Assembly (NCBI GenBank): GCA_019635215.1
Contig: JAHBZZ010000010.1
Coordinates: forward strand, 29,516 to 93,515
DNA from: Nitrosomonas sp.
GTDB lineage: Bacteria; Pseudomonadota; Gammaproteobacteria; Burkholderiales; Nitrosomonadaceae
Length of the DNA: 64,000 bases
Reading direction: 5' to 3'
In this document: piece after piece, positions 37,239-40,494 of the stretch
How the letters are laid out: every line of letters starts with the position of its first letter
Numbering within the stretch: the stretch's first letter is position 1
Notes under the pieces: model-generated
Told to the model about the DNA's origin: nothing
The model's input: only the letters and a program-made list of their open reading frames with translations
Database searches by the model: none
Program-made: the position numbers and the translations under genes

Positions 37239-39131
37239 TTAAGGTTGATAGCGTATCATGGCAAAGAAATTACGTCCCGGCTGGTTGAAAAACGCCGCTG
37301 TTTCATAATGCTTGTCAAACAGGTTTTCAATACGTCCCTGCAAACGCCAATGTTTATTTAAGATATATTCGGCGCGCAGGTCAAACTTGACATAGCTGTC
37401 CAGTTTCCGTGTATTGCCGAGATCGTCGAAGCGTTCGCCTTCTGCCAGGAACATGGCACCAATACGGTACCGACCAAACTCACGGTCAATATCAAGACGG
37501 AAGGATTGTTCCGCACGCCGCGGCAGTATATTGCCTCTGCTCGCATCGGCGGAACGGTTTTCCGGATCGAGAAACGTCAGATTACCATTCAACAGCCAGC
37601 CGCGGATTGTTGTACTGAGCACGGCTTCCAATCCACGTATGTGTGCCTGAGCGATATTGGCAGGCAAAAAAGTATTGGCATCGAAGGCAATCATATTATC
37701 AATCCGCGTATCATATACATTCAACGACCATTTGCCCCATGCCATATTACCACGTGTACCAAATTCAAAACTGCGCGATTCTTCCGGACGTAAATCGGGA
37801 TTACTGAAACCGGGAAAATAAAGTTCATTGAATGTCGGTGCTTTAAATGCACTGCCGAAATTTGCCGTCAGACTGATACGATCTGTAATGGCATACCCCC
37901 AGCCCGCACCACCGGTTACCCAACTACCGAACTGCTGATTATCATCATAGCGTAATGACAATTGCGCGCGATGACGCTCAACCGTTGCAAGATACTGTGA
38001 AAAAGCACCCCAGTTTGCGCGTGAAGTTTTGGTAAACACCTCTGAGCTGTCGATATGATCATGCAGATAATCCATACCCACTGTCAATTGATGATTCGGA
38101 TTGATCGTAAAATCATTCTGCAGACTCACTGTATCGCGTGTCGTATTGAAACGCGACATAAACAACCTTTCCAGAAAATTATCGCTGTCTTCGCGGCTGC
38201 GGCCTGCAGTCAGATTGACACGCCAGAAATCCAGCGGCGAATAACGCGCGGAACCGCCAAACACCTGCTGCAGTGTCTCCGACACATTGACAAAGCTGCC
38301 ATCATAGTGTGCTCTACCGGCGGAATGCATAAAGTTGGCGTCAAGTTCCAGACCGTTCTCAAACCGGTAACCGGCACGCGCCGAACCAGCCACATTACGA
38401 TAACCGTCACGATCGGGTTCAACCGTAAAACAACCGGCCGTATCGCTGCCCGTGCATGCATTAAAACCTTTAGTACCTATACCACTGGCCGTCAGGTTAA
38501 ACCATCCTCGCTCACTTGATCCCGACAGCCCGACCGAACCGTTCAATGTACCGTAACTGCCGCCGCCAAAACTGAAGCTGGGACTGAAACCGCTGCCACC
38601 GCTTCCTTTACGGGTAAAAATCTGGATCACCCCGCCGATCGCTTCAGAACCATACAGACTTGAACGCGGCCCACGAACAATTTCAATGCGTTCAATCTGC
38701 TCAAGCGGAATATTTTCAAATGCAGTGGTACCCGATGTCACCGATCCCACCCGGATACCATCGATCATCACCATAATATGATCGGATTCGGTGCCGCGCA
38801 TCTGTACAAATGTACTTTTTCCCGGACCACCATGATTCATGATGCTCACGCCGGTCACGCCACGCAGTAAGTCCTGGATCGACCTGGATTGCTGACGTTC
38901 GATATCTTCACGTGTAATCACCGTCGCTGAGGCTAATGATACGTCGGCGGATTGCGCTGTACGCGCTGCTGTTACAATGATGGGTTTTTCAAAAGGATAA
39001 TTATTCTGCGGTATGCTGCCCGCCGCTGCATCAGCCGCAACCAGTGTCATAATGACCATGCCAGGCAGAAATTCAGCGGCGCGCACGCCGCTTGCAGCCA
39101 TGATCGCCGCAAACCGATTGTATTGTTCCAT
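37239..39131 (-). CDS. btuB: TonB-dependent cobalamin receptor
   Basis: IIVTAAR TonB-box region; IERIEIVRGPRSSLYGSEAIGGVIQIFT plug end; FKAPTFNELY and GRIENLFDKHY; upstream B12 riboswitch. Confidence 0.93.
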   Translation of the reverse strand: MEQYNRFAAIMAASGVRAAEFLPGMVIMTLVAADAAAGSIPQNNYPFEKPIIVTAARTAQSADVSLASATVITREDIERQQSRSIQDLLRGVTGVSIMNHGGPGKSTFVQMRGTESDHIMVMIDGIRVGSVTSGTTAFENIPLEQIERIEIVRGPRSSLYGSEAIGGVIQIFTRKGSGGSGFSPSFSFGGGSYGTLNGSVGLSGSSERGWFNLTASGIGTKGFNACTGSDTAGCFTVEPDRDGYRNVAGSARAGYRFENGLELDANFMHSAGRAHYDGSFVNVSETLQQVFGGSARYSPLDFWRVNLTAGRSREDSDNFLERLFMSRFNTTRDTVSLQNDFTINPNHQLTVGMDYLHDHIDSSEVFTKTSRANWGAFSQYLATVERHRAQLSLRYDDNQQFGSWVTGGAGWGYAITDRISLTANFGSAFKAPTFNELYFPGFSNPDLRPEESRSFEFGTRGNMAWGKWSLNVYDTRIDNMIAFDANTFLPANIAQAHIRGLEAVLSTTIRGWLLNGNLTFLDPENRSADASRGNILPRRAEQSFRLDIDREFGRYRIGAMFLAEGERFDDLGNTRKLDSYVKFDLRAEYILNKHWRLQGRIENLFDKHYETAAFFNQPGRNFFAMIRYQP

Positions 39132-39262
39132 GCTGTTCTCCTCCGCGCCACCCGCGCGTTATCGGGTTAAAAAAGGACCGCAGAGGAAAGAAACAGATCA
39201 ATATCGCCTGAGCACAAAGATGCTATCCAGACGGTAACGCCCTCCGCAATACCATTGTATTT

Positions 39263-39675
39263 ACATCAGGCCGGTCTCCGGACTCATGAGTAGCGATATT
39301 CGTCGGAATATCCTCAATCTGCGCCTTCCCGTACATTGACACAGTGGCGTTCGTTGCAGACTGTTGGCTCATTTACCGTTGCGGGGGCAGTGCTGGATTT
39401 GTTCCAAGAAACTGCTCAAGATCTCGATCAAGGGGGGACGCGGTGTCAGGCAAAATTGAACGACGCAAGCAAAGCGCAGCGAGCAGCCGTAGGCTGGCCC
39501 GTAGGGCGAGGCCGCCCACGCCGAGTAAAAAGCGCAGCATACTCGAAGCACGTAAGCATTTTGAGTTCGATTTTAACGCAACAATGCGCCCTTCAGTGAA
39601 ATCATGAACAGGTTCTAATGCATAAAACACACCAGCTTCCCGTTTAACCTCTTGTTAACAAAAGGCACCTGAAGT
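39263..39675 (-). ncRNA. Cobalamin riboswitch with an enlarged P4 arm
   Basis: Minus strand: ACTTCAGG-TGCC..AAACGGGAAGCTGGTG [insert] AATCCAGCACTGCCCCCGCAACGGTAA..GCCACTG..GGGAAGGC..AGTCCGGAGACCGG-CCTGATGT; the P1 ends pair. Confidence 0.92.
39407..39616. mobile_element. ~210 bp MITE inside the cobalamin riboswitch
   Basis: Imperfect terminal inverted repeats AGAAACTGCTCAAGATCTC / GAAATCATGAACAGGTTCT. Confidence 0.7.
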
Positions 39676-39685
39676 AAGGTTGCGG

Positions 39686-39714
39686 AGCGTACAGAGATGA
39701 TGACCGAATGTCAA
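39686..39714 (-). promoter_or_regulatory. Sigma-70 promoter of the btuB operon
   Basis: TTGACA-17 nt-TACGCT, ending ~10 nt before riboswitch P1. Confidence 0.75.
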
Positions 39715-39816
39715 GTGCGCGCTTTTCCCAAGACAAAATAAGTCGGGATGCTGGCACTACCACGTGTGTATACGGGATCAGAAACACTCCGCAAATAAAC
39801 CGCTTTCCCGCCTGAG

Positions 39817-40494
39817 TTACAAGGTATTGCCCTCGGTCAACTCGAACGATCCTTCGATCTCGCCATTGACAATGTAGCTATAGATACCCCTCGGCAAGCC
39901 ATAGACCTGTAATGGCACCACTCTCTCAAACGGAACCAAAGCCTGAGTACATACAACGCTACCATCGTCCGGTACCATGCTCACAGCATTAACGGTGATT
40001 TCAAACCGGCCATTTTTCAGGCGCTGGTGGATTCCTCTAATGGCTACGCAGCCATTGGATAAGTGTCCCCGGATATTCAGAAATACCTGAACGGGAAAAC
40101 TATCTGTGATATGTGCCTCCACACTATCGTCTGGCTGGAGGAAGTAGACGGAGCGTCCAGAGGTAGGTGTTAATTCGGCGGATTTGAATTCTTGCAGTTG
40201 CCAGCTGTTGCTATTGGAATCGAATATAAACAAACCATCCAGAAATGCACCGGGCTGTTCATCGGTATCCACACGCGGAATCGTCAAAACACCATCGCGG
40301 TAGTATGGAAAATCCGTGACCGGTCCATTCGCAATTGTTAGCATTCCATCCTGCTCTAACATCCCGACCTGTGCATCCATGCGGACATAAATCGTATTAA
40401 TGTAATCGTCTGTCAATGCCTGTGAGAAAACCAGGTTGATCGATAAGCAAATAGATACAACAAATACTGCTAAATCCCTCTTCATACGATTCAT
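39817..40494 (-). CDS. Exported hypothetical protein
   Basis: 225 aa ORF with signal peptide, AGGAG RBS and Cys pair (GC..VCTQALVPF); no family assigned. Confidence 0.75.
   Translation of the reverse strand: MNRMKRDLAVFVVSICLSINLVFSQALTDDYINTIYVRMDAQVGMLEQDGMLTIANGPVTDFPYYRDGVLTIPRVDTDEQPGAFLDGLFIFDSNSNSWQLQEFKSAELTPTSGRSVYFLQPDDSVEAHITDSFPVQVFLNIRGHLSNGCVAIRGIHQRLKNGRFEITVNAVSMVPDDGSVVCTQALVPFERVVPLQVYGLPRGIYSYIVNGEIEGSFELTEGNTL

Follow-up and report, generated by a model that had tools for sequence, protein, structure and literature searches.

Introduction

Riboswitches are thought to face tight folding constraints, and here we describe a cobalamin (B12) riboswitch whose aptamer carries a MITE (miniature inverted-repeat transposable element). 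It lies in the btuB leader on the minus strand of a 64,000-nt stretch of Nitrosomonas sp. DNA (hereafter the window; GenBank assembly GCA_019635215.1, contig JAHBZZ010000010.1, positions 29,516 to 93,515), and a search with the receptor protein also gave Nitrosomonas as the genus of the genome. Long stem-loop "variable insertions" are tolerated in riboswitches (Barrick & Breaker 2007, PMC2258182). The insert of the present leader is likewise long, non-conserved and, by prediction, a stably folding stem-loop at a tolerant site; it differs in that its origin is known and recent, with a dated transposition, empty sister sites, and a donor family still in the genome. In the pneumococcal trp leader, a BOX element lies between two T-box riboswitches, and regulation is apparently retained (Croucher et al. 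2011, PMC3049150). Both leaders are riboswitch-controlled and contain a small, co-transcribed mobile repeat, but the BOX element separates two complete aptamers, whereas the MITE lies within one aptamer, in the helix of a tertiary-contact loop. A 2024 review goes no further than speculating that MITEs might form riboswitch-like structures (PMC10969869), and in the literature searched we found neither a description of a MITE inside a riboswitch aptamer nor the present MITE family itself.

The btuB-type RF00174 switches (E. coli btuB, env8, and T. tengcongensis) resemble the present one in the core, the B12 box, the C-rich L5, the G-rich L13, the anti-Shine-Dalgarno (anti-SD) and Shine-Dalgarno (SD) segments, and the position upstream of btuB and cobO. 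In a published description, L4 is a T-loop through which the L4-L6 contact is made and which directs the global fold, and the regulatory switch is L5-L13 (PMC6158498). In a typical cobalamin riboswitch L4 is a closed 7-nt T-loop, whereas here it carries a nested helix, which we name P4a, extended by a 208-nt transposon. In regards to the transposon, we take it to be grouped with the IS5-family MITEs that have 3-bp TNA/TWA duplications (bacterial IS1031-type; eukaryotic Tourist/PIF-Harbinger). It resembles these in its 18-bp terminal inverted repeats (TIRs), its 3-bp TNA duplication, and its 840-bp candidate partner insertion sequence (IS) with DUF4096 and DDE_Tnp_1; it differs in that the family is two-sized, the larger form having a 64-bp module of which other Nitrosomonas also have copies that lack these ends. 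For this locus, the filled allele could be followed in two species and set against more than 100 empty relatives, conservation was tested quantitatively, and a candidate partner IS was identified.

A MITE within the riboswitch aptamer

The one Rfam match that the window gave in cmscan was to RF00174 (85.8 bits, E = 9e-20; the gathering score is 31.5 bits), which covers model positions 1–189. It lies in the btuB leader, and the genome (3.39 Mb in 46 contigs) contains no second RF00174 match. In the RF00174 alignment an insertion of ~230 nt falls between model positions 58 and 59, which correspond to the P4 loop. All RF00174 core nucleotides are present, namely GGGAA, GGUG/AAUCC of P4-L4, L5 GCCCCCGC, GCCACUG, and the B12 box. 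The aptamer and insert comprise the following parts, in the order of the RNA.

39687-39252, minus strand: cobalamin riboswitch aptamer (RF00174, cmscan), 436 nt with the insert
39619-39687, minus strand: 5′ part of the aptamer, with the P1/P2 5′ strand, GGGAA, and UGU of L4
39666-39648, minus strand: P3-side hairpin, within the 5′ part
39636-39632, minus strand: P4 5′ strand, GCUGG
39629-39623, minus strand: P4a 5′ strand
39616-39618: target duplication copy, TAA on the plus strand (UUA in the RNA)
39408-39615: long-form MITE, 208 bp, with TIRs at 39408-39425 and 39598-39615 and including the 64-bp apical module
39405-39407: second target duplication copy, CAA on the plus strand (UUG in the RNA), with one mutation
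39252-39404, minus strand: 3′ part of the aptamer, with the P4a 3′ strand GGAAC, AAAU of L4, and P6 with its extension
39396-39392, minus strand: P4 3′ strand, CCAGC
39388-39381, minus strand: P5/L5, GCCCCCGC (C-rich)
39284-39269, minus strand: B12 box, AGUCCGGAGACCGGCC

An earlier reading of the letters of the window (the sequence-only reading) had proposed a ~210-bp MITE in the P4 arm of an otherwise intact cobalamin riboswitch. The 208-bp length, the TIRs, the TNA duplication, the ~45 copies, the empty sites, and the partner IS bear this out, and the match over model positions 1–189 includes both minus-strand motifs that it quoted as flanking the insert (GGGAAGCUGGUG on the 5′ side and AAAUCCAGCACUGCCCCCGCAAC on the 3′ side). 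Its estimate of a roughly doubled aptamer agrees with the 436 nt found here versus 215–225 nt at empty sites in relatives, and its 19-bp imperfect inverted ends are close to the measured TIR of 18 bp. The expectation that covariance models would miss or split the switch did not hold: Infernal gave one full-length match, ~25 bits below that of the empty allele in a related leader (L036). This has a consequence for annotation. The loss of ~25 bits was survived here, but smaller aptamers with such inserts would be missed because of it.

The TIR consensus of the family is GAACCTGTTCAAGATCTC / GAGATCTTGAACAGGTTC, from which the window copy departs by two mismatches per arm. BLAST of the insert against its own genome gave 78 pieces on more than 20 contigs, with ~11 full-length and ~30 shorter copies; the family numbers ~45 copies in the genome, dispersed and in both orientations. 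Two contigs start or end within MITE copies (C3:3-218 and C16:50492-50698); the assembly is therefore broken by the family, and the copy number is a lower bound. The copies fall into two size classes, of 141 bp and of 205 bp, the latter being the short form plus the 64-bp apical module. The 3-bp target duplication is TNA, mostly TTA or TAA and occasionally TCA or TGA. Of 33 copies, 19 have it in perfect form, and the target preference (C-TNA-R) is weak. The window copy is 85–90% identical to other copies and is non-coding, the open reading frames (ORFs) of 85–87 aa across it being only mechanical. The family was found in 21 of the 81 Nitrosomonas species sampled and is especially abundant in the genome of a sister species (G116), which has more than 40 long copies and 151 candidates. 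The TIRs, target duplication, dispersed copies, empty sites in relatives, and matching IS confirm that the insert is a true MITE. We also looked for a long P4 shared by relatives together with an absence of dispersed copies, which had been named as evidence to the contrary, and did not find this combination. An assembly artefact was ruled out, because the copy is just 85–90% identical to any other and lies inside a 130-kb contig; it also has its own duplication and a counterpart in an independent assembly.

Empty and filled sites in relatives

The sequence-only reading had proposed a comparison of btuB leaders for an empty site, which we carried out at two scales. Nineteen related btuB leaders were scanned, and the aptamer was 215–230 nt in 17 of them (one is cut by a contig end). 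The leader of G116 (L031), from a locus whose BtuB is 94% identical, has an aptamer of 410 nt, and that of L041 has 289 nt owing to a different insert in the P6 extension. Alignment revealed the precise empty site GCA-TTA-GAAC in L036 and three further leaders (L032, L033, and L034). L031 contains the same MITE at the same base and in the same orientation; its duplication there is a perfect TTA/TTA, and 16 nt are deleted internally. An empty-site query made of the joined flanks was then compared with the genomes of 121 Nitrosomonas species. The leader was present in 116, filled only in the window genome and G116, and empty at the MITE site in the other 114. In metagenomes, a clade-specific 5′ junction pattern gave no matches and no further filled alleles, and a broader core pattern gave seven further leaders, all empty.

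Two smaller inserts were observed in these relatives. The insert of L041 (2680-2755; the same as in G117, L111) is ~72 nt, lies in the P6-extension region, and has complementary ends (AAGGGTATC ... GATACCTTT); it may be another small mobile hairpin. In G116, a second MITE occurs right after the btuB stop codon (L031:4893-5033), between btuB and the next gene, orf193. It is a short form of 141 bp, 94% identical to the consensus, with the duplication TTA, and neither the window nor L036 contains it.

Landing site and predicted fold

L4 contains extra native sequence of 17–28 nt in most Nitrosomonas relatives, ~70 nt in G008 (L108), and ~85 nt in G079. Across the genus it has the layout P4 - UGY - [G...C helix] - AAW(N) - P4, and P4a is the helix in this layout. 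Covariation across 15 distinct sequences supports P4a: its closing G-C pair never varies, and the following pair (columns 9-28) reads UA in 8, CG in 6, and UG in 1. The P4a of the empty allele L036 pairs GUUUUA with UAGAAC and closes on the loop UGCAU, and the duplicated UUA straddles the junction of this loop with the 3′ strand of the stem. This comparison shows the MITE to have entered the apical loop of P4a, a small hairpin present in the btuB switches of the whole genus. The placement in P4 by the sequence-only reading was thus correct as to P4/L4, which cmscan also gives, but the target was the P4a loop and not the bare P4 loop. The MITE left the T-loop unbroken and entered the tip of a helix that already projects from L4, and the tolerance of the MITE is attributed to this pre-existing, genus-wide hairpin. 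The 85-nt extension of G079 (L109:150-234) is single-copy in its genome, so long L4 extensions that are not current repeats do occur at this site.

In the sense of the leader, the MITE RNA is predicted to form one long imperfect hairpin (−78.6 kcal/mol, z = −2.7). The minimum free energy (MFE) structure of the whole 436-nt aptamer retains the P3-side hairpin, P4 (GCUGG/CCAGC), the base of P4a (UGUUUUA/UUGGAACA), and the MITE rod. The predicted rod extends P4, in line with the earlier proposal that the insert folds back on itself and lengthens this arm. The traits of a riboswitch "variable insertion" were thus observed or predicted: the length of L4 varies among homologues, P4a covaries, and the insert has a rod fold by prediction.

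Conservation of the filled alleles

We defined as critical the 121 aptamer columns that are invariant in the 17 empty Nitrosomonas alleles. The window allele deviates at one of these (G-C to G-U in a stem), as does the L031 allele at one, and the empty alleles gave 0–3 deviations in a leave-one-out control. The MITE copies of the window and L031 differ at 12% of aligned sites and by 23 gap columns, and this 12% is close to how far the flanking genes diverge at silent sites. With changes accruing at the rate of the MITE, ~14–16 would be expected in both lineages together (Poisson P ~1e-4). The two copies lie ~0.095 and ~0.054 from the family consensus, and two independent insertions would accordingly predict ~11 and 6.5 changes, compared with 1 and 1 observed. 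Outside the MITE, the aptamers diverge by 10.6% between the two filled alleles and by 11.5–11.6% between filled and empty alleles. Both filled alleles are as conserved as the empty ones in aptamer core and expression platform, and the sequence evidence suggests that selection has maintained the transposon-bearing sensor.

History of the locus

The synonymous divergence (dS) of btuB was ~0.42 between the window and L031, ~0.43 between the window and L036, and ~0.36 between L031 and L036, which is a near-trichotomy with a mosaic signal. For this reason (dS ~0.4 for each of the three pairs), btuB by itself did not serve as the neutral yardstick, a role given to the flanking genes. For the upstream gene of 225 aa, the dS of the window was 0.23 to L031 and 0.58 to L036; for orf193, the respective values were 0.17 and 0.49. 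The two filled genomes are therefore local sisters, with the empty L036 as the outgroup, and the simplest history would be a single insertion in the common ancestor of the window and L031. Immediately 5′ of the element, ~130 nt of the window allele differ by 7.8% from the empty L036 and by 23% from L031. We read this as a probable recombination tract that ends at the MITE edge in the window allele.

Both btuB and cobO, the third gene of the operon, give a tree that differs from that of the adjacent genes, with a window-L031 dS of ~0.4 versus 0.17–0.23 in the adjacent genes. Judged from these divergences, the btuB locus is a recombination mosaic. Recombination mosaics are often seen for outer-membrane receptors. 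The tree of the MITE copies is star-like, and the two copies in btuB leaders share just one derived base relative to the family consensus. Nine rows of this tree form a separate deep group (branch length ~0.9), which probably reflects loci in the opposite orientation.

Operon, promoter, and expression platform

The aptamer lies 120 nt upstream of btuB, and the gene order btuB-orf193-cobO recurs in relatives. The features of the operon and of the leader outside the aptamer are as follows.

39686-39714, minus strand: putative sigma-70 promoter of the btuB leader, read from the sequence
39233-39253, minus strand: P13/L13 hairpin, GGUA-UUGCGGAGGGCG-UUACC, with a G-rich loop, the proposed kissing partner of L5
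39178-39189, minus strand: putative anti-SD segment, UUUCCUCUGCGG, which could pair with L13 (UUGCGGAGG) or with the SD
39135-39146, minus strand: SD region, GCGGAGGAGAAC, ahead of the btuB ATG at 39131
37239-39131, minus strand: btuB-like TonB-dependent outer-membrane receptor, 630 aa, intact (Pfam Plug, 1.4e-30; TonB_dep_Rec_b-barrel, 3.7e-50)
37225-36644, minus strand: orf193, 193 aa, no Pfam match
36640-36026, minus strand: cobO/btuR corrinoid adenosyltransferase (PF02572, 1.1e-63)

The conserved orf193 begins with a hydrophobic segment and also lies between btuB and cobO in L031, L036, and L032. The putative promoter consists of the −35 hexamer TTGACA (39714-39709), a 17-nt spacer, and the −10 hexamer TACGCT (39691-39686), and its CTTGACA is conserved in relatives. 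It escaped a consensus scan, since its −10 hexamer agrees at just three of six positions. In 39050-39900, neither an intrinsic terminator nor a sigma-70-like promoter was predicted on either strand, including the MITE. The L13 block UUGCGGAGGGC is near-invariant among relatives (17 listed, of which 2 read UCGCGGAGGGC). The MFE fold of the leader pairs the anti-SD with the SD region. The anti-SD is conserved across the genus and partly covaries, changing jointly with the SD in relatives (CCUUCGC with GCGAAGG). The platform of L13, anti-SD, and SD is intact, with differences of ~5%. By analogy with the btuB and env8 switches, we infer a kissing contact between L5 and L13 in this leader.

Proposed mechanism and evaluation of alternatives

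We consider it fairly probable that the locus is a B12 riboswitch, still working, with a tolerated MITE as a near-neutral passenger, and thus a giant "variable insertion" and not a case of inactivation. The riboswitch would control the translation of an uptake and salvage operon, btuB-orf193-cobO. A non-autonomous IS5-family MITE entered it at a TTA in the apical loop of P4a, and in the modelled fold its inverted ends and largely palindromic body would form a rod over all 208 nt. The rod would stack on P4a and point away from the ligand pocket. It would rejoin the two halves of P4/L4, so that the T-loop of L4, the four-way junction, and loop L5 could take their usual form. Binding of B12 would then stabilise the L5-L13 kissing contact and lock UUGCGGAGGG in L13. 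The anti-SD CCUCUGCGG, thus left free, would pair with the SD GCGGAGGAG and, as in analogous switches, btuB translation would be shut off. Because no intrinsic terminator is predicted in the leader, the regulatory decision is placed at ribosome binding, so that ~200 nt of additional transcription within the aptamer would be affordable. The effect on the organism is probably small.

Several points weigh against this interpretation. The local phylogeny is mosaic, and the 5′ flank of the MITE in the window resembles the empty L036. Since the MITE phylogeny is star-like, the element itself offers no proof that the filled alleles share an origin. Parts of the aptamer may have been renewed through recombination with empty alleles, and the argument for selection is the weaker for it. 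The MFE structure of the L031 allele is without a clean rod at the base, and a rod of ~100 bp on the T-loop L4 could slow or misdirect folding or offer a substrate to RNase III. One alternative explanation is that the insertion crippled or changed the switch, leaving it constitutively on or off, weaker, or slower, or destabilising the leader through RNase III cleavage; the aptamer would then look intact through lack of time for decay or through restoring recombination with empty alleles. The MITE does lie within L4, the T-loop module described as directing global folding (PMC6158498), and the predicted imperfect duplex of ~100 bp is a plausible target of RNase III. A probable recombination tract adjoins the MITE (5′ flank of the window, 7.8% from L036 and 23% from L031), and the filled allele is kept in just 2 of 121 species. 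Against this stand the MITE copies, which are 12% apart and ~9.5% and 5.4% from the consensus, compared with one change each at the 121 critical positions, and the platform, which differs by ~5% compared with 15–27% at silent sites. Moreover, btuB, orf193, and cobO are intact, and because the switch is the sole B12 switch of the genome, a loss of regulation would go unbuffered. We regard a crippled or changed switch as unlikely, though it deserves more weight than the explanations that follow.

The filled alleles of the window and G116 (L031) could instead derive from independent insertions into the same TTA, with the P4a loop as a transposase hot spot. Judged by the sequence immediately 5′ of the MITE, the window goes with the empty L036, and L031 with L032/L033, but a recombination ending at the MITE edge accounts equally well for this tract. 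The single shared derived base in a star-like phylogeny, and the high activity of the family in G116 (more than 40 long copies, 151 candidates, and a second MITE after btuB), would also fit, as would the empty site TTAGAAC, which has the same letters as the duplication followed by the element's first four bases. The target preference is nevertheless merely C-TNA-R, and a chance insertion at the same base in the same orientation is therefore improbable. Furthermore, by their flanking genes the window and L031 are local sisters (dS of 0.17–0.23, versus 0.49–0.58 to L036), and the 12% divergence of the MITE copies is in keeping with this age. Two independent insertions thus seem improbable to us. 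Lower still, as a very improbable explanation, we place co-option of the MITE for an added function in the leader, whether as a site that binds antisense transcripts from the ~45 other copies, as a processing site, or as a folding pause by which the response to B12 is tuned. The element is retained in two species, its divergence is 12% versus 26.5% at 4-fold sites of btuB, and the many copies in both orientations could yield complementary RNAs. However, the MITE evolves at the silent rate of the adjoining genes, the L031 copy has lost 16 nt, both copies have TIR mismatches, no promoter or terminator is predicted, and the site lacks the element in 114 of the 116 leader-bearing Nitrosomonas genomes.

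The interpretation as a tolerated passenger has a stronger form, to which we assign only a small probability, namely that the MITE-bearing aptamer is fully working and that such insertions are the birth of "variable insertions", which later decay into lineage-specific helices. In this form, a palindromic MITE would land in an exposed hairpin loop and be retained because it folds on itself. Just as speculative is the view that the 70–85-nt extensions of G008 and G079, and perhaps P4a itself, are older relics of MITE insertions; the 3′ strand of P4a, UUAGAAC, resembles the duplication plus the element end.

The btuB leaders of related ammonia oxidisers form a matched natural series, with a 33-nt P4-L4 hairpin, an 85-nt L4 extension, and a transposon-extended form of ~230 nt. 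They raise the questions of how much extra RNA a T-loop-bearing helix can carry, whether translational switches are more tolerant of inserts than transcriptional ones, and whether mobile elements are a source of "variable insertions" in many riboswitch classes.

Candidate partner insertion sequence and apical module

An earlier search for paired MITE ends 0.8–3 kb apart, and in small contigs, gave only ordinary genes and no autonomous element. A Pfam DDE_Tnp_1 search of the genome followed by relaxed TIR matching located an 840-bp IS at C4:13889-14728 (duplication TTA) and at C44:17464-18302 (duplication TAA), the latter copy with several indels. Truncated copies occur at C2:102293 and C25:23499. 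The terminal repeat of the IS is GAACCTGTTCAAAGTCT, the first 12 bases of which are identical to the MITE end. The two ORFs of the IS, DUF4096 (1e-19) and DDE_Tnp_1 (1.3e-29), overlap and are joined at a frameshift-like A7 run. We assigned it to the IS5 family because of these ORFs, its ends, and the 3-bp duplication; in the ISfinder scheme it presumably belongs to the IS1031-like subgroup. This IS is a likely candidate for the mobilising partner of the MITE.

In regards to the 64-bp apical module (39460-39525), the internal part of the MITE (query 43-181 or 56-132) matches repeats in five other genomes (G048, G057, G056, G037, and G043), and these repeats are without the present TIRs. This suggests that the apical module is common to different MITE families.

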